43,171 bases of DNA from a virus (taxonomy: Duplodnaviria; Heunggongvirae; Uroviricota; Caudoviricetes), in the IMG/VR virus record IMGVR_UViG_2939121850_000002, positions 1-43,171 of that record. The stretch is one strand, 5' to 3'. This document shows, piece by piece, positions 1 to 43,171 of the stretch. The notes under the pieces were generated by a model. The model saw nothing but the letters and a program-made list of their open reading frames with translations. It did not search any database and was not told the DNA's origin. The position numbers were made by a program, and so were the translations under genes. Positions within the stretch are counted from its first letter, which is position 1, and the number at the start of each line of letters is the position of its first letter.

Positions 1-870
1 TTGCTTGACAGCTTCACCGAAAAAATGGCGCGAAATTTTCATTTCGAATATGGAACAGCGCGCGCCTGGGGATCTTTTGGCTATGCTATTGGCGCGTTCT
101 TTGCCGGCATATTTTTTAGTATCAGTCCCCATATCAACTTCTGGTTGGTCTCGCTATTTGGCGCTGTATTTATGATGATCAACATGTGTTTTAAAGATAA
201 GGATCACCAGTGCGTAGCGGCGGATGCGGGAGGGGTAAAAAAAGAGGATTTTATCGCAGTTTTCAAGGATCGAAACTTCTGGGTTTTCGTCATATTTATT
301 GTGGGGACGTGGTCTTTCTATAACATTTTTGATCAACAACTTTTTCCTGTCTTTTATGCAGGTTTATTCGAATCACACGATGTAGGAACGCGCCTGTATG
401 GTTATCTCAACTCATTCCAGGTGGTACTCGAAGCGCTATGCATGGCGATTATTCCTTTCTTTGTGAATCGGGTAGGGCCAAAAAATGCATTACTTATCGG
501 TGTTGTGATTATGGCGTTGCGTATCCTTTCCTGCGCGCTGTTCGTTAACCCCTGGATTATTTCATTAGTGAAGCTGTTACATGCTATTGAGGTTCCACTT
601 TGTGTCATATCCGTCTTCAAATACAGCGTGGCAAATTTTGATAAGCGCCTGTCGTCGACGATCTTTCTGATTGGTTTTCAAATTGCCAGTTCGCTTGGGA
701 TTGTGCTGCTTTCAACGCCGACTGGGATACTCTTTGACCACGCAGGCTACCAGACAGTTTTCTTCGCAATTTCGGGTATTGTCTGCCTGATGTTGCTATT
801 TGGCATTTTCTTCTTGAGTAAAAAACGCGAGCAAATAGTTATGGAAACGCCTGTACCTTCAGCAATATAG
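1..870 (+). CDS. cscB: LacY-family oligosaccharide:H+ symporter, C-terminal 289 aa (sucrose permease CscB-like); 5' end lies outside the window
   Basis: Translation aligns along its length with LacY-type motifs (EKMARNFHFEYGTARAWG, YNIFDQQLFPVFY, GPKNALLIGVVIMALRI, KLLHAIEVPLCVISVFKY). The csc locus is known to sit next to argW in some E. coli. First codon TTG is a window-edge artefact. Confidence 0.6.
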   Translation: MLDSFTEKMARNFHFEYGTARAWGSFGYAIGAFFAGIFFSISPHINFWLVSLFGAVFMMINMCFKDKDHQCVAADAGGVKKEDFIAVFKDRNFWVFVIFIVGTWSFYNIFDQQLFPVFYAGLFESHDVGTRLYGYLNSFQVVLEALCMAIIPFFVNRVGPKNALLIGVVIMALRILSCALFVNPWIISLVKLLHAIEVPLCVISVFKYSVANFDKRLSSTIFLIGFQIASSLGIVLLSTPTGILFDHAGYQTVFFAISGIVCLMLLFGIFFLSKKREQIVMETPVPSAI

Positions 871-36091: not shown

Positions 36092-36628
36092 TCAAACAAC
36101 CCACCAGTTTGCCTGATTGGATACCAGCCTTGCAGTTTTTATGGAATTAATTATGCCATGCTCAAGAGCCTTGTTAGCATCCAAAATGGTCGAGTCTGCT
36201 ATCAGGGATGCCCACCTAATATGGGTTCCGATGTCGATATTGAACGTCTCAACGAAGCGATCAAGATCGTTATCGAGGCATTTCCCGTACTCTCTCAATC
36301 TGGCATGGTCGGCGGCTGGGGTGGCAAAGCCCCATAATAGAGGATGTAACAGGAATCTTGATAATGGGTTTGCGAAACGTTCTGAGCCAGCCAGGAAAAC
36401 GATATTAGCTATGGATTCAACATTGCTTATGTTGTGAGTTCTAACGGTAACAGGGAGTGACTTAAGAAAGTTATACGCAGTAAAACCAGCGGCAGTTTCC
36501 CCTCCCTGACTTGATATATGGATATTTAATTCAGTTGCGCCTTGAGATAATGCGGTGAGACAGTGGTTCTGAAGTTGCCCAACAGTGGCAGTGTTAACGG
36601 GGCATAAGAAATGAATTGTGTGCAGCAT
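36092..36628 (-). CDS. ClpP-fold (Clp/crotonase-type) serine peptidase-like protein, translationally coupled to mnt
   Basis: Aligns by eye to the ClpP catalytic core (Ser in ...NVESIANIVFLAGSER..., His in ...FLLHPL...); its start shares one nucleotide with the mnt stop (TAATG). Confidence 0.55.
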   Translation of the reverse strand: MLHTIHFLCPVNTATVGQLQNHCLTALSQGATELNIHISSQGGETAAGFTAYNFLKSLPVTVRTHNISNVESIANIVFLAGSERFANPLSRFLLHPLLWGFATPAADHARLREYGKCLDNDLDRFVETFNIDIGTHIRWASLIADSTILDANKALEHGIINSIKTARLVSNQANWWVV

Positions 36629-36864
36629 TATTTTTCATCCTTACCATACATGGTTTTCAGCGTCTCAAGCAGCGCATCCCTGAATTTGTCAGCCTCTTTC
36701 TGAGCAAATTCATTGCTATTAAGCGATCTACCACAAACAGCATCTTCGATAATCTGTATTATTTCAGCATTCATGGAACGCTTGTTATGTTGCGCCCTGG
36801 CTTTAACCTTTTCCTTTAACTCTTTGGAAATCCTAATATTTATTTGCGGCTCTTCGCGTGACAT
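36628..36864 (-). CDS. mnt: Mnt-like ribbon-helix-helix repressor (immI maintenance repressor)
   Basis: RHH N-terminus (INIRISKELKEKVKARAQHNKRSMNAEIIQIIEDAV) as in P22 Mnt; divergent from arc-ant. Confidence 0.7.
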   Translation of the reverse strand: MSREEPQINIRISKELKEKVKARAQHNKRSMNAEIIQIIEDAVCGRSLNSNEFAQKEADKFRDALLETLKTMYGKDEK

Positions 36865-36916
36865 ACCACCTCCATAGCATTTTGGTGATATTACTATTGC
36901 ATCACTGCGATCACAA

Positions 36917-36935
36917 TGGTATAACGGTTATACCA
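36917..36935. promoter_or_regulatory. Perfect 19-bp palindrome in the mnt/arc intergenic region (candidate Mnt/Arc operator)
   Basis: TGGTATAAC-G-GTTATACCA, between divergent mnt and arc. Confidence 0.45.
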
Positions 36936-36952
36936 AATTGATTGGAGGTAAT

Positions 36953-37126
36953 ATGATAGTCAAGTCAGACGCACCAAAGTACCCTTTGCGCATCCCATTA
37001 GAGGTTAAGTTAGCAATCGAGAAGTCAGCGAAAGAAAATGGTCGCTCAATAAATACCGAGATGGTAATGCGGTTGGTGGATAGTTTAAGGCGGGATAGTT
37101 CTAAAGGTAATCTAGCAAAAAGTTGA
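36953..37126 (+). CDS. arc: Arc-like ribbon-helix-helix repressor
   Basis: 57 aa with PLRIPLEVKLAIEKSAKENGRSINTEMVMRLVDSL, similar to P22 Arc. Confidence 0.7.
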   Translation: MIVKSDAPKYPLRIPLEVKLAIEKSAKENGRSINTEMVMRLVDSLRRDSSKGNLAKS

Positions 37127-37205
37127 AGCCCCAACTGCGGTAACAGTCAGGGCTTCGGTTGTCGGTAAATCCGTGGAGAAAAACCAACATGAATAGTATA
37201 GCAAT
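37112..37205 (-). ncRNA. Candidate sar-like antisense RNA across the arc-ant junction
   Basis: Minus-strand intrinsic terminator (7-bp stem GAAGCCC/GGGCTTC, then TTTTT on the minus strand) in the arc-ant intergenic region, where P22 sar RNA terminates. 5' end and promoter not determined. Confidence 0.3.
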
Positions 37206-38091
37206 TTTAGAAGCAGTGAACACCTCTTACGTGCCTTTCAATGGTCAGCAAATTATCACCGCCATGGCTGCCGGAGTTGCATATGTTGCGATGAAACCAA
37301 TCGTTGAAAACCTCGGAATGAGTTGGGGTACTCAGCAACAAAAACTTATGAAACAACTAGATAAGTTCAACTGTATTCATATGAATATGGTTGCTGCTGA
37401 TGGAAAGCTTCGTAAGCTACTCTGCCTTCCTTTGAAGAAGTTAAATGGATGGCTGTTCAGCATCAACCCTGAGAAAGTTCGTGCTGACATCCGTGATAAA
37501 CTGATTCAGTACCAGGAAGAATGCTTTACTGTGCTGCATGACTACTGGACGAAGGGAAAGGCAGAAAATGCACGTAAGAAAACATCTGTTGATGACAGGA
37601 CTCCGCTTCGTGATGCTGTAAATATGCTAGTCAGCAAAAAGCATCTAATGTACCCAGAAGCTTATGCAATGATTCATCAGCGTTTCAATGTGGAAAGTAT
37701 TGAAGAGCTTGATGCATCTCAGATACCGCAAGCCGTAGAGTACATCCACAGGGTAGTGCTTGAAGGCGAGTTAATCGGCAAACAAGAGAAGAAAACCAAC
37801 GAGCTTTCTGCAAAAGAAGCAAACAGCCTTGTATGGTTATGGGATTATGCCAACCGTTCACAGGCATTATTCCGCGAACTGTATCCGGCATTAAAACAAA
37901 TTCAATCGAACTATTCCGGCAGATGCTACGACTACGGTCATGAGTTCTCGTATGTTATCGGAATGGCGAGAGACGTTTTAATCAATCACACACGAGATAT
38001 TGATATCAATGAGCCAGACGGACCAACGAATCTTTCCGCATGGATGAGACTTAAGAATAAAGAATTACCTCCTTCAGTACATAACTACTGA
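37189..38091 (+). CDS. ant: Antirepressor Ant
   Basis: [52 protein letters not shown]... matches P22 Ant as recalled; GGAGAA RBS. Confidence 0.8.
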
Positions 38092-38190: not shown

Positions 38191-40641
38191 ATGACAGATT
38201 CAATAAATGCCAATGTTGTAGTGAGTATGCCTTCGCAACTCTTCACTATGGCTCGTTCTTTTAAAGCCGTAGCCAATGGCAAAATTTATATCGGTAAAAT
38301 TGACACTGACCCGGTAAATACTGAAAACCAGATTCCGGTTTATGTAGAGAACGAAGACGGCTCTCACGTTCCTGTTTCTCAACCAATCATCATTAACGCT
38401 GCTGGTTATCCTGTATATAACGGACAGATTGCTAAGTTCGTTACTGTACAAGGGCATTCTATGGCTGTGTACGATTCATATGGATCACAGCAGTTCTATT
38501 TCCCTAATGTGCTGAAGTACGATCCAGATCAGTTTTCATATTTGCTGAAAAGTGATGATGGCTATAAGTATATAGGAGAATGCAAAGATATATCTACATT
38601 GAGAACAATTGAACCAAGTTATGATGGACAGGTTATAAGACTGAGGGGATATTACTCTGACAGCTATTCAGGAGGTGGAAGGTTTTTCCGTAGTGTTAAT
38701 CCTGATGGATTGACAGATAACGGAGGAACGATAATTTTCACATCAGAAGGAAATGTATGGAAATCAGATGATATATATAATGTTATGCTTGAGGATTTCG
38801 GAGCTAAAGATGGCGCTGACAACACCGAAGCATTTCATAAAGCAATTAACTCACCAGCAAAAAAAATCACAACAAATATAAAAGAGTTGATACTAACAAA
38901 CAATATTGTAATTACACGCGGCGACCTGGCAATTGATATGCCTGATACGGAGATAATATGGAATGCTCCGGAAGGGCATATTCCTGATAGAAGTGGATCT
39001 ACAAATCCAAGTAACTATCGTTTTCCTGGCATTCTAGCATTTCGCGGCACTGCTGGAGATATAATAGACTCTTTTACTCTAACAAATAGAATATCAAAAG
39101 GAGATACAACATATTGGTGTACGAACAACTCTCTTTTTGAGAATAGACAGTGGGTTATTATGTCATCGGATGTTGGCGGCGGAACCGTAGGTAGAGAAAT
39201 AAATGTAATGACACAAGTGCAGGGCAGTGGTGGAGCAATAACTCAATTGCGAGTTGATTATAAAACAGGCTGGCATCTTGATGTCGGAAGGGTATTGACA
39301 TATAGAAATGTAACCCCAATAGAAAATGTAAGAATTGCTTTTAAAGGCGTAAAATGGAATCAAAACATAACAGATGCTTCAGGTAGTGGCGATGGATTTG
39401 CCAGTCAACAATCATGCGCACTTGTGTCCCTTGAATACGTAAATAACGCTGACATTTGTCTCGGGTATGGATTTAATCACCCTTACCCAATGGTTGTAAC
39501 TGCCATGGTCAGGAATGTTTTTGTTCATGATACGGAAACAAATTTCCCAAGAGTTCCAGGGTCCGATCATGTTGTTCAATTCAATAACGCATATGAATGC
39601 CACGCAAGAAGATTACGCAATATTTCAGGCAGGCACGTAGTTGATTTTAGTGGTGCAAGTTATTGCTCTGTAAGAGATTGCGGAGAAACAGGAACAAGAA
39701 ATGGTGCATTTACTACGCACGGTATGTTTGAGCACAATTTGCGATTTGATAATAATTATGGTCTTTTAAGCATTGCAAACAGTGGTGAATATTATGGTGA
39801 GTCAGCAGATAATATAACTGTAACCCATCATTTCGGAGATTATTTAATTGCAACTTCAAAAGTTACCAACCTTAACATATTGCATGCAATATTTACAAAA
39901 GGTGCAAGATTAAACAATGATGCCGTCACATTGATTGATGTTACTATTGGAGAAAACTCAACTGATGCCGATAGAGGGCTTAGATTTACCCAAAGCTCTA
40001 ATGTTTATGGGCGTGGGGCAAAAATATTCGGCTGTGACATTGTGTTAAACAAGCAAGCAGGGAATGCTCTGCCTGATTCTCTTAACCAAAGGGTGAAAAT
40101 CGAATCGACATATATCAGGAATTCAAACGCTTCATATTATGGTGGTAGTTGGATTGAACTAATTAATTGTGATGTTTCAGGATCAGGTTCAAGTCTTGAG
40201 AATGTTGTTGCTGCAACGCGGTTTAGCATGCTGTCCGGATCATTATCTAATACTGGTTTTATTTTTCAAGGCCCATCAGAGCAAATCGTAAAAATACATG
40301 ACGTTTCACAGTCTGGAACAGGAGCGTCAGGGCTTAATAGTCATTTTATTTTAAATAAAGATGAGGCAGGAAGTGGACCAATAACAATGTCATATAAAAA
40401 TAATCAATGTATATTGAGCGGAGAAACATGCGCATTCAAAATAAATAATGCTTCAGGAGCATTCAGAGTAAACTCTACAGGGAATACGTTTCAAGGTGGA
40501 AAAATAGAGTTTCAGAAATCTATTACATCAGGTGGCAGTTACTTAAATCACACTGGAAACGTAGAGCGTGGCGTTAGTAGAGTCAACGAGCCAGAAAATA
40601 CTCCATATATAGTAACAACAGGGAATATGATAATTCCCTGA
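38191..40641 (+). CDS. Tailspike (P22 gp9-type head-binding domain with a divergent AT-rich receptor-binding domain)
   Basis: First ~115 aa ([43 protein letters not shown]...[12 protein letters not shown]...[10 protein letters not shown]) match the P22 gp9 head-binding domain; the remaining ~700 aa are AT-rich and unrecognised. Confidence 0.85.
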
Positions 40642-40769
40642 TATAATATAAATCGCCAAGGATGGCTCATTCAAATAAGAATCTTTAGTAATCAGATTGT
40701 TAATTAAAGATGGTTTGTTGGTTTTTATGTTTATTAAAAAAGGTTATATCAACGCGCTGTTATTGTTCT

Positions 40770-41963
40770 TTAATCAACCTTCCCATCAAGCCAGTCCGCC
40801 CACCACTGCATCATTTCTCTGCGCTTATCGAGATACTGAGCATGGTTGTAAATTCCACGCACAGAACCGCCGTTGGCATGTGCTAGTTGCACTTCAATGG
40901 CGTCGGCAGGCCATTCGTGCTCGTTCATAATCGTGCTGAATTCATGCCTGAATCCGTGACCGCTTTCCAGACCTTCATAGCCGATTTGTTTGATCACAAG
41001 CAGTACCGCGTTCTCGCAGATTGGCTTCTTCTTATCGTTGCGCCCGGCAAAAACAAACTCTGAGACTGGTTTGGTTATTGAGCTTAGCGTAGTGAGAAGT
41101 TCAACCACCTGGTCTGACATCGGGACCACATGAATTTTGCGTCCCTTCATCACACTGGCGTCGATGGTGATAATCCTGTTTTCAAAATCGACGTTCTTCC
41201 ATAGCATGGAACGAAGCTCTTTCGTTCTTAGGGCTGTGTAGCGTAAAACTTTGGTCGCAATGAGCGATACGATACTTCCTGAAAATGTTGCCAGTGCTTT
41301 GTTGAATGCAGGGATCTGGTCTGCTGGAAGAAACGGGAAGTTCTTCTTGCGGTATCCTTTCATGGCGTCTGCAAGGTCAGGTGCCGGGTTATATTTAGCC
41401 CTTCCGGTGACAATAGCGTAACGAAAAACCTCGCCGCATCTTCTGCGGGCTTTGTTGGCTCGCTCCATTGCACCGCGATCTTCAAATCTGCGGATTACTT
41501 CCAGCAGTTGCATCGGCTCAATATCCTGAATCTCAAGACCGCCGATGATGGGTAAAATGTCGTCATCAAACATTTTGGCAAGTTCAGTTGCATAGCCTAC
41601 TGACCAGACTTGCTTCTTGTGCTCGTACCATTCCTTGTAAATCGCACTAAATGAATTGTTGTTAGACGAAGCCTTTTTCGCCTTTACCGGATCTATGCCA
41701 ACCGAGATGTCTTTCCTCGCAGTCCATGCCTTATCCCTTGCTTCCTGCAAAGTCATAAGCGGATATTTTCCGACAGTCAGGATTTTCTCCTTACCGTCAA
41801 TCTTGTAGCGAAGCTGCCATACCTTTTTCCCTGATACAGGGACATAAAGGTACAGGCCATTACCATCGAGAAGGCGGTATGGTTTTTCTTTCGGCTTTGC
41901 TGCTTCAATCTGCTTAACGGTGAGCATGGGTAAAAATCCGGTGGGTAAAATTATTTTATCCAC
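40770..41963 (-). CDS. intS: P4-type tyrosine integrase (IntS-like)
   Basis: N-terminus (LTVKQIEAAKPKEKPYRLLDGNGLYLYVPVSGKKVWQLRY) is typical of P4-family integrases; transcribed away from argW. Internal Met at 41927 may be the true start. Confidence 0.85.
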   Translation of the reverse strand: MDKIILPTGFLPMLTVKQIEAAKPKEKPYRLLDGNGLYLYVPVSGKKVWQLRYKIDGKEKILTVGKYPLMTLQEARDKAWTARKDISVGIDPVKAKKASSNNNSFSAIYKEWYEHKKQVWSVGYATELAKMFDDDILPIIGGLEIQDIEPMQLLEVIRRFEDRGAMERANKARRRCGEVFRYAIVTGRAKYNPAPDLADAMKGYRKKNFPFLPADQIPAFNKALATFSGSIVSLIATKVLRYTALRTKELRSMLWKNVDFENRIITIDASVMKGRKIHVVPMSDQVVELLTTLSSITKPVSEFVFAGRNDKKKPICENAVLLVIKQIGYEGLESGHGFRHEFSTIMNEHEWPADAIEVQLAHANGGSVRGIYNHAQYLDKRREMMQWWADWLDGKVD

Positions 41964-42088: not shown

Positions 42089-42103
42089 TGGCGTCCCCTG
42101 CAG
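42089..42103. repeat. Prophage attachment core, right copy, forming the 3' end of argW
   Basis: tggcgtcccctgcag; partner of 1312-1326. Confidence 0.6.
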
Positions 42104-42163
42104 GAATCGAACCTGCAATTAGCCCTTAGGAGGGGCTCGTTATATCCATTTAACTAAGAGGAC
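42089..42163 (-). tRNA. argW: tRNA-Arg (anticodon CCU)
   Basis: 75-nt cloverleaf on the minus strand: acceptor GTCCTCT/AGGGGAC, anticodon loop CTCCTAA, T-arm GCAGG-TTCGATT-CCTGC, encoded CCA end. Confidence 0.9.
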
Positions 42164-42238: not shown

Positions 42239-43171
42239 TTATGCCGGGTTTTTATCATTTTTCTTAATGTTTTCCGCACGTTCTGCTTTTTGGCGTGCTT
42301 CTGCTTTACGCTTGTTGCTCATGTCGTTACGAATCTGTGCATGACTCATTAACGCGAAGATAAAGGTGCCGCCGCAGATGTTCCCCGCTAAAGTAGGTAG
42401 TGCGAAGGGCCAGATGAAATCGCTCCAGTGCAGCGTACCGTTAAACACCAGATAGAGGATTTCAACAGAACCGACCACGATATGGGTGGTGTCACCCAGG
42501 GCAATAAGCCAGGTCATCAATATAATCACCACAATCTTTGCCGCACCTGCTGCAGGAAACATCCATACCATAGTGGCGATCAGCCAGCCGGAAATGATCG
42601 CGTTGGCAAACATCTCGCTGGGGGTGTTCTTCATCACATCCATGCCGATTTTGACAAATGCATCGCGAGTTTCTTCATTGAAGATAGGCATATATTCAAA
42701 TGCCCATGCAGCAATACCTGTCCCGAGAATATTACCCAGCAGCACGACGCCCCATAATCGCATAAGTAAGCCGACGTTGCTCATTGTCGGTTTTTGCATG
42801 ACGGGTAGTACCGCAGTCACGGTGTTTTCGGTAAATAATTGCTGGCGGGCCATAATGACGATAATAAAACCAAAGGTATAACCGAGATTCTCCAGTAAGA
42901 AGCTGCCCGGCACACCTTCCAGTTCGACATGAAATATCCCTTTTGCCAGTAACGAAGCGCCCATCGACAGACCCGCCGCAATGGCTGACCACAGTAGCGC
43001 CATTGCGTCGCGTTCCAGCTCTTTTTCACCATCCTGGCGGATATGCTCATGAATTGCCATCGCCCGGGAGGGGAGTCGGTCTTCATCTATTTCTATTTTT
43101 TTGCCGCGCTCTTTTTCTTCGCTCTCAACTTCAATTTCGTCGCTGTGTTGATCAATTTTGTCGTTGTCCAT
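42239..43171 (-). CDS. yfdC: Formate/nitrite-transporter-family inner membrane protein (YfdC-like)
   Basis: 310-aa polytopic membrane protein; position next to argW as in E. coli K-12. Start codon sits at the window edge. Confidence 0.6.
   Translation of the reverse strand: MDNDKIDQHSDEIEVESEEKERGKKIEIDEDRLPSRAMAIHEHIRQDGEKELERDAMALLWSAIAAGLSMGASLLAKGIFHVELEGVPGSFLLENLGYTFGFIIVIMARQQLFTENTVTAVLPVMQKPTMSNVGLLMRLWGVVLLGNILGTGIAAWAFEYMPIFNEETRDAFVKIGMDVMKNTPSEMFANAIISGWLIATMVWMFPAAGAAKIVVIILMTWLIALGDTTHIVVGSVEILYLVFNGTLHWSDFIWPFALPTLAGNICGGTFIFALMSHAQIRNDMSNKRKAEARQKAERAENIKKNDKNPA

Follow-up and report, generated by a model that had tools for sequence, protein, structure and literature searches.

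A P22-type tailspike with a horizontally exchanged beta-helix module in an Escherichia coli prophage, and a Wzy-dependent glycan as its proposed substrate

The tailspike gene and its domains

The window, by which we mean the whole stretch of DNA analysed (43,171 nucleotides (nt); IMG/VR record IMGVR_UViG_2939121850_000002), holds at positions 38191 to 40641 the tailspike gene of a P22-like (Lederbergvirus) prophage inserted at argW in Escherichia coli. In brief, the gene joins a standard head-binding domain to an exchanged receptor-binding part, and we suggest, at a probability of roughly 0.5-0.55, that the latter acts on a Wzx/Wzy-dependent glycan of its hosts. Near-identical copies (~99%) carry the RefSeq names 'phage tailspike protein' or 'phage head-binding domain-containing protein'. 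The gene and its parts, numbered in amino acids (aa), are as follows.

38191..40641, + strand: tailspike gene, 816 aa, ATG start; final late gene ahead of the integrase, from the list of open reading frames (ORFs)
38200..38532, + strand: P22-type head-binding (particle-attachment) domain, aa 4-114; PF09008 Head_binding, E=1.8e-64
38533..38544, + strand: recombination junction, aa 115-118 (...YDPDQF followed by SYL...), where similarity to P22-like spikes stops
38545..38850, + strand: conserved module after the adaptor, aa 119-220, common to many otherwise unrelated spikes
38851..40638, + strand: predicted right-handed beta-helix depolymerase body and C-terminal beta region, aa 221-816; 38% GC
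39631..39921, + strand: candidate active-site segment, from family conservation, with R481, H482, D485, H510, E514, H515, H547, N575 and D577 (motif [18 protein letters not shown])

The initial annotation, made from the letters alone, had read the N-terminal ~115 aa as a P22 gp9-type particle-binding domain. This is borne out by PF09008, which scores 215 bits over aa 4-114 (cut-off 24), and by matches to the solved head-binding domains of Sf6 gp14 (aa 1-116, E=2e-62), P22 gp9 and HK620-type spikes. DNA identity to HK620 (92.7%), Sf6 and CUS-3 (87-93% for the three) and to other phages ends at gene nt ~344-345, and similarity to the receptor-binding relatives, among them a spike of phage vB_EcoM_ESCO8 (hereafter ESCO8), starts at '[13 protein letters not shown]'. 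The head-binding part was found in ~1,100 of 5,426 complete E. coli genomes and the receptor-binding DNA in 14 of them, always at 99.4% identity or above; like the window, all 14 have the ORF intact. A search for diverged E. coli copies that could serve as independent lineages returned only these 14 near-identical ones.

The receptor-binding part (38536..40641) has 38.0% GC, and 26% GC at third codon positions, against 47.0% for the whole prophage, and is the lowest-GC 2.1-kb stretch of the entire element. Asn, Gly and Ser together account for 28.7% of the residues in aa 116-816 and reach at most 45% within a 40-aa window. The AT-richness and the Asn/Gly/Ser-richness noted earlier are therefore real, the latter being an enrichment typical of beta-helices and not low-complexity sequence.

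Predicted fold, family and candidate active site

Residues ~119-220 match CBA120 TSP2 (5w6p, 6w4q) and TSP4, Klebsiella Depo32 and Pantoea WceF with E values of 1e-8 to 1e-13, and are assigned to PF27114 Phage_tail_beta in precomputed Pfam. AlphaFold confidence is low at aa 153-194. For aa 221-816 we found no match in Pfam, NCBIfam or PDB sequences, and a PDB profile search hit only the aa 119-220 module. Homology to known depolymerases, one of the checks that had been proposed, was found in these searches within aa 1-220 and not in aa 221-816.

Another of these checks, structure prediction, did give a beta-helix: the predicted monomer model has a beta-helix depolymerase fold with a right-handed parallel beta-helix as C-terminal domain. 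Structurally, the model comes closest to lyases and to depolymerases of acid polysaccharides, not to mannosidases. Klebsiella K1 lyase (7w1c), phi297 gp61, LKA1 gp49 and AP22 gp54 are alike in fold at 11-15% identity only, a likeness that fixes neither chemistry nor substrate. We regard it as nearly certain that the protein is a tailspike of the P22 type and that its beta-helix depolymerase was acquired horizontally and belongs to an uncharacterised family.

The ~700 aa after the head-binding domain had been described as unrelated to anything recognised, which did not hold. Besides the shared module at aa ~119-220, the whole receptor-binding part has relatives that are 61-71% identical, and an exhaustive profile search gave 73 clusters (at 50% identity) with E<1e-30 and 243 with E<1e-10. 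Its own cluster at 90% identity comprises 180 sequences. A tblastn search against 50,697 phage records hit ESCO8 and, beyond it, only distant proteins of Vibrio and Bacillus phages.

Conservation was read from an alignment of 30 family members, whose identity to the query ranges from 18% to 70% and mostly lies at 18-33%. In this alignment H510 and N575 are invariant, and R481, H482, D485, E514, H515, H547 and D577 are at least 90% conserved. The conserved residues are spaced every ~28-32 positions, roughly one turn of the helix, and because they recur turn by turn we propose them as the catalytic groove. Cleavage, be it by hydrolysis or by beta-elimination, would most likely take place in a groove lined by R481/H482/D485, H510/E514/H515, H547 and N575/D577.

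Exchange of the receptor-binding module

The same module rides on at least four other backbones. Its closest phage protein is ESCO8_00245 (UPW37474.1), which is 70% identical over all 691 receptor-binding residues; this is an extra spike of the phi92-like myovirus ESCO8 and occupies the slot of the phi92 endosialidase gp143. At the DNA level the two are only 70.6% identical, and this over gene nt 694-1833 only, so the exchange was not recent. The ESCO8 genome has 37.5% GC, and the GC content of the spike module fits such low-GC virulent phages rather than the prophage. The relatives at 61-71% identity bear PF18668 or other N-terminal adaptors and sit in siphovirus-type prophages of Klebsiella and other hosts (loci L010, L011 and L014), with one in an unclassified element where the spike lies directly upstream of the terminase (locus L012). 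The Klebsiella pneumoniae example (GCA_023740275.1, contig JAMRPH010000017, locus L010, 10001-15999) is a 62%-identical spike in a siphovirus-type prophage, followed on the opposite strand by gtrA/gtrB/gtrC-type genes.

Two E. coli genomes show the exchange close at hand. In the carrier 2020CK-00188, the prophage backbone differs from the window up to 38075, a short distance upstream of the gene, and is similar to it from there on; between the window and this lineage the receptor-binding part shows only 6 aa differences. Strain WCHEC115106 holds a sister prophage in the same clone and at the same argW site, whose spike combines a head-binding domain 92% identical to that of the window spike with a receptor-binding domain of the G7C gp66 type. 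Judged by sequence comparison, everything after aa ~118 is a horizontally exchanged module of a family that also rides myovirus and siphovirus adaptors. The initial annotation had proposed a horizontally swapped receptor-binding or glycanase module, and the several other backbones, the swap in place in the sister prophage and the low GC content all speak for it. That receptor-binding domains are exchanged as modules on P22-type adaptors is well established, and as a gene the spike is routine.

The sister prophage (NZ_CP043334, locus L016, 4501-8045) also encodes, after its spike, a WzyE-family polymerase that is 31% identical (E=1e-37) to the Wzy of the host cluster described below. This is likely a polymerase-type seroconversion module. 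The window prophage has no such Wzy paralogue downstream of its spike, whose receptor-binding domain is unrelated to that of the sister.

Comparison with characterised and catalogued spikes

Spikes of the P22, Sf6 and HK620 type are homotrimers, of which six attach to the tail by their N-terminal head-binding domains. With the C-terminal beta-helix they bind long surface polysaccharide and cut it, which lets the virion advance to the outer membrane. By analogy, the standard head-binding domain of the window spike would dock on the tail and the exchanged beta-helix module would cut a host glycan. P22 gp9, Sf6 gp14 and HK620 gp9 have the head-binding domain in common with the window spike but show no sequence similarity past aa ~118, and neither their substrates (rhamnosidic bonds of Salmonella O-antigen, Shigella flexneri O-antigen and E. 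coli O18A1, respectively) nor their catalytic residues are shared. With CBA120 TSP2 and TSP4, Depo32 and WceF the situation is different: the module at aa ~119-220 is alike, whereas the downstream catalytic beta-helices are unrelated in sequence. We found no catalytic-domain similarity to spikes of known specificity (P22/Sf6 endorhamnosidase, HK620 endo-N-acetylglucosaminidase, CBA120 TSP2-4, K1F/phi92 endosialidase, G7C gp63.1/gp66), the PDB matches covering aa 1-220 only. High identity to a tailspike of established specificity was sought and not found, and ESCO8_00245 at 70% has no assigned receptor, so no relative gives the specificity, which the initial annotation had called unknown.

As an object the spike is not new, being present in RefSeq and in a published catalogue. 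Pas, Latka, Fieseler & Briers 2023 (PMC10408124) place K71-77_Prophage_RBP (CP040886) and ESCO8_RBP in subtype X8, to which no serogroup is assigned (Table S1). The subtype is defined by at least 30% aa identity over the receptor-binding domain, and the window spike falls within it, with 70% identity to ESCO8_00245 and 99.0-99.6% nt identity to the copy of K71-77, one of the 14 carriers. The two differ in their adaptors: ESCO8_RBP has a phi92-type myovirus adaptor in the gp143 slot and comes from a phage isolated on an O78 host, whereas the window spike has a P22-type adaptor. Membership in the 'O8' or 'O78' subtypes of the same catalogue was considered and rejected, those being the G7C gp66 and CBA120 TSP4 families, which are different proteins. 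The authors of PMC10408124 also describe conserved motifs at the position after the adaptor that may act as recombination hot spots; the module at aa ~119-220 lies at that position.

Glycan loci of the carriers

The carriers CUVET21-147, 1EC187, MS10495 and K71-77 have identical accessions across the galF-his region, with two O-polysaccharide loci each. The first, from galF to gnd, is a six-gene Wzx/Wzy cluster of wzy, wzx, a 496-aa orf3, a gene for a glycosyltransferase of family 4 (GT4), pssD and pssE. The second, from wzzB to hisI, is the ABC-transporter O8 mannan cluster (wzm/wzt/wbdA-C). In the latter, manC is a pseudogene in CUVET21-147, where it has an internal stop, and in 1EC187, where it is frameshifted (locus L003, 19023-24019; locus L004, 18365-19767), and a group II intron (ltrA) lies between manB and wzm in CUVET21-147 and MS10495 (locus L003, 19023-24019; locus L005, 16882-18549).

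The Wzx/Wzy cluster is present in 66 of the 5,426 genomes and O8 genes in ~300. A chimeric query made of a cluster fragment and the O8 wzt matched 310 genomes, 57 with both loci, 9 with the cluster only and, by subtraction, 244 with the O8 wzt only. Among the 14 carriers, 13 have the Wzx/Wzy cluster: at least 11 have both loci, OZ501642 has the cluster (its O8 status not being listed) and 2020CK-00188 has the cluster only. The fourteenth, SWYH.B349aT, has neither locus, and there are consequently no carriers among the 244 O8-only genomes. For LR882493, the chromosome of which is rearranged, the O-locus status was read from the chimeric query. Fisher's exact test yields p=5e-25 with all other genomes as the comparison and p=7e-10 with the O8-only genomes, values that are not corrected for phylogeny and ignore clonality.

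Strain 2020CK-00188 has the cluster as a 97% allele, with all six genes intact and with different allele accessions. No O8 wzt was found anywhere in its genome, and wzzB abuts hisIE with no mannan genes between them. It is an independent carrier lineage, and the weight of the association rests on two lineages.

In strain SWYH.B349aT the O-locus is a cluster of the O125 family in which wzx is frameshifted (locus L017, 4984-17588), and the flanking alleles are of the type found in sequence type 410 (ST410). The prophage of this strain is decaying, with a truncated 'packaged DNA stabilization protein' gene (locus L018, 1-1001). High O-locus diversity within ST410 has been described (PMC12753057). 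Together, the ST410-type flanks, the decaying prophage and this diversity fit a replacement of the O-locus, and the strain looks like a case of such replacement after lysogeny, an explanation that is post hoc.

The layout of the galF-gnd cluster is presumably that of the K40 cluster of E. coli O8:K40:H9. That cluster, reportedly described by Amor and Whitfield in 1997 and by Amor and co-workers in 1999, is said to consist of wzy, wzx, an orf3 for the addition of serine and three glycosyltransferase genes, to lie between galF and gnd upstream of ugd and to coexist with O8. The K40 repeat is GlcA(L-Ser)-GlcNAc-GlcNAc (GlcA, glucuronic acid; GlcNAc, N-acetylglucosamine). In the carriers ugd is adjacent, PssD/PssE also match the beta-1,4-glucuronosyltransferase WelK, and the GT4 protein matches GlcNAc-transferase families. 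ORF3 and Wzy are identical to the late-1990s UniProt entries O30628 and O30626; neither ORF3 nor wzx gave Pfam or NCBIfam matches. We consider that the cluster is probably K40.

The annotation pipeline PGAP names the wzx between galF and gnd 'O8 family O-antigen flippase' (locus L003, 7939-13817; locus L008, 22734-28612). Strain 90-1 (NZ_CP050047) is typed O8 by SerotypeFinder in Pas et al. (PMC10408124), yet it has the Wzx/Wzy cluster without the O8 wzt, and seven or eight more genomes are alike, ZYB62 being another such cluster-only strain. In-silico 'O8' thus seems to conflate two glycans.

Proposed substrate of the spike

We suggest that the substrate is the Wzx/Wzy-dependent, K40-like glycan made by the galF-gnd cluster in ST410-type and related E. 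coli, and not the neighbouring O8 polymannan. We infer this from the presence of the cluster in 13 of the 14 carriers, 2020CK-00188 with the cluster and without O8 being the telling case. The Wzy paralogue encoded by the sister prophage indicates, in addition, that P22-like phages do target the Wzy-made glycan in this background. As cited in PMC10408124, Casjens & Grose 2016 have it as a general rule that the spikes of Lederbergvirus prophages match the O-antigen of the host.

It should be noted that several points weigh against this proposal. With 12 of the 14 carriers in one clone that has both glycans, the discrimination between them rests mainly on one independent genome. SWYH.B349aT carries the spike without either locus. 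The isolation host of ESCO8, the bearer of the 70% relative, is an O78 strain, and O78 has a galF-gnd cluster of its own. The K40 label is only a probable one, and no database name for the entries of the cluster says K40. Finally, the 62%-identical Klebsiella relative lies beside gtrABC and Klebsiella O5 is the same polymer as the O8 mannan of E. coli, so O8 stays a candidate. As to ESCO8, its host was considered as a guide to specificity and dropped, the host being O78 and the phage having several other receptor-binding proteins.

Were the classical O8 polymannan the substrate, the spike would be an endo-mannosidase, an activity reportedly described biochemically for coliphage Omega8 in the 1970s. 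We favoured this polymer at first, having found the O8 cluster in four carriers, and downgraded it once 2020CK-00188 proved O8-negative. That at least 11 of the 14 carriers have the wzm/wzt/wbdA-C genes agrees with a mannan receptor, as does the Klebsiella relative, the gtrABC neighbours of which imply a receptor of the O-antigen type in a genus that shares the mannan. We nevertheless think it unlikely, since 2020CK-00188 lacks both the O8 wzt and any mannan genes between wzzB and hisIE, none of the 244 inferred O8-wzt-only genomes has the spike, and the O8 locus is itself marked by a manC pseudogene in two carriers and a group II intron in two. That its best structural matches are not mannosidases points the same way, although this argument is weak.

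The spike might also act on a glycan tied to neither locus, such as an unrecognised capsule, colanic acid, enterobacterial common antigen (ECA) or a modified O-antigen, the link to the cluster then being clonal hitch-hiking of a vertically inherited prophage. The dominance of one clone with identical accessions among the carriers would fit this, and so would the absence of both loci from SWYH.B349aT, the O78 isolation host of ESCO8, and the suggestion of Pas et al. (PMC10408124), who gave X8 no serogroup, that such unassigned subtypes may target K antigens. A receptor as widespread as ECA or colanic acid, however, fails to explain why the module is in 14 genomes when the head-binding domain is in ~1,100, and the lineage of 2020CK-00188 received the spike on a different prophage backbone and yet has the cluster. 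On balance such a glycan is a somewhat better candidate than the mannan, though still an improbable one. More doubtful than either is that the module binds a glycan without cleaving it, or that the gene is a non-functional leftover in a prophage undergoing decay. The catalytic residues are candidates only, and at least one carrier prophage is degraded, that of SWYH.B349aT with its truncated packaging-related gene. Against these readings stand an ORF that is intact in every copy, so few receptor-binding differences from an independent lineage, a cluster of His, Asp, Glu and Arg residues kept down to 18% identity, and the full set of morphogenesis-sized ORFs in the window.

If the Wzy-dependent glycan is indeed the substrate, the recombinant receptor-binding domain would be a specific typing or decapsulating reagent, and engineered phages or pyocins could carry it as cargo. 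The lack of a serogroup for X8 in Pas et al. would then also have an explanation. As the host association suggests, the glycan recognised would be a second, Wzy-made one that current serotyping lumps with O8. We take the ST410-type carriers to be probably the multidrug-resistant high-risk clone ST410; a spike family with no characterised member would then offer a lead in this probably multidrug-resistant clone. A wider claim, to which we would give somewhat less than even odds, is that the spike is the first identified depolymerase acting on the K40-like, Wzx/Wzy-dependent glycan made by these carriers and that it also stands for a catalytically new family of beta-helix spikes, marked by a conserved His-rich centre (RH..D / THGxFEH / H / NxD) and a chemistry outside the solved structures.

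Surroundings of the gene and layout of the prophage

The tailspike gene lies between an immI-type region and the integrase. The neighbouring features are the following.

36092..38091: immI-type region upstream of the tailspike; Pfam PF00574, PF03869, PF10547 and PF10548
36092..36628, - strand: Clp-protease-like gene of the immI region, 178 aa; PF00574, E=4e-12
36628..36864, - strand: Arc/Mnt-like gene of the immI region
36938..37126, + strand: Arc gene of the immI region
37159..38091, + strand: antirepressor Ant gene of the immI region
40642..40769, no strand: tailspike-integrase spacer, 128 bp; from the ORF list, with a matching layout in annotated copies
40770..41963, - strand: prophage integrase IntS; from the ORF list and the RefSeq annotation of the identical locus
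42089..42163, - strand: tRNA-Arg(CCT), argW, the attachment site; from ARAGORN and annotated copies
42239..43171: yfdC, beyond argW; from annotated copies

The gene order of DNA transfer proteins, Arc, Ant, tailspike, IntS and tRNA-Arg places the spike in the P22-like position, after the injection genes and immI and before int/att. The argW insertion site is also seen in annotated E. coli genomes. At the left end, 1..870 codes for the last ~290 aa of a sugar permease of the LacY family (PF01306, E=7e-133); with this fragment on the left and yfdC on the right, the window is a complete P22-like prophage with host DNA on both flanks. A scan for promoters and terminators around the tailspike gene gave nothing above the expectation from shuffled sequence, and no + strand terminator past the stop codon.

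No gtr, oac or wzy gene lies beside the tailspike in the ORF list or in annotated copies, the stop codon at 40641 being separated from the end of the integrase gene by the 128 bp only, which agrees with what the initial annotation had said of gtr and oac. Seroconversion-type genes do adjoin the tailspike in relatives: WCHEC115106 has a wzy there in its sister prophage, and the prophage of Klebsiella has gtrABC. As the window prophage has no receptor-modifying gene, the lysogen would not be protected by seroconversion.

Within the immI region, the 3' end of the Arc/Mnt-like repressor gene shares one base with the start of the Clp-like gene (36092-36864, - strand). The Clp-like gene is present in CUVET21-147 and absent from the prophages of 2020CK-00188 and SWYH.B349aT; it may be a moron or an exclusion gene.

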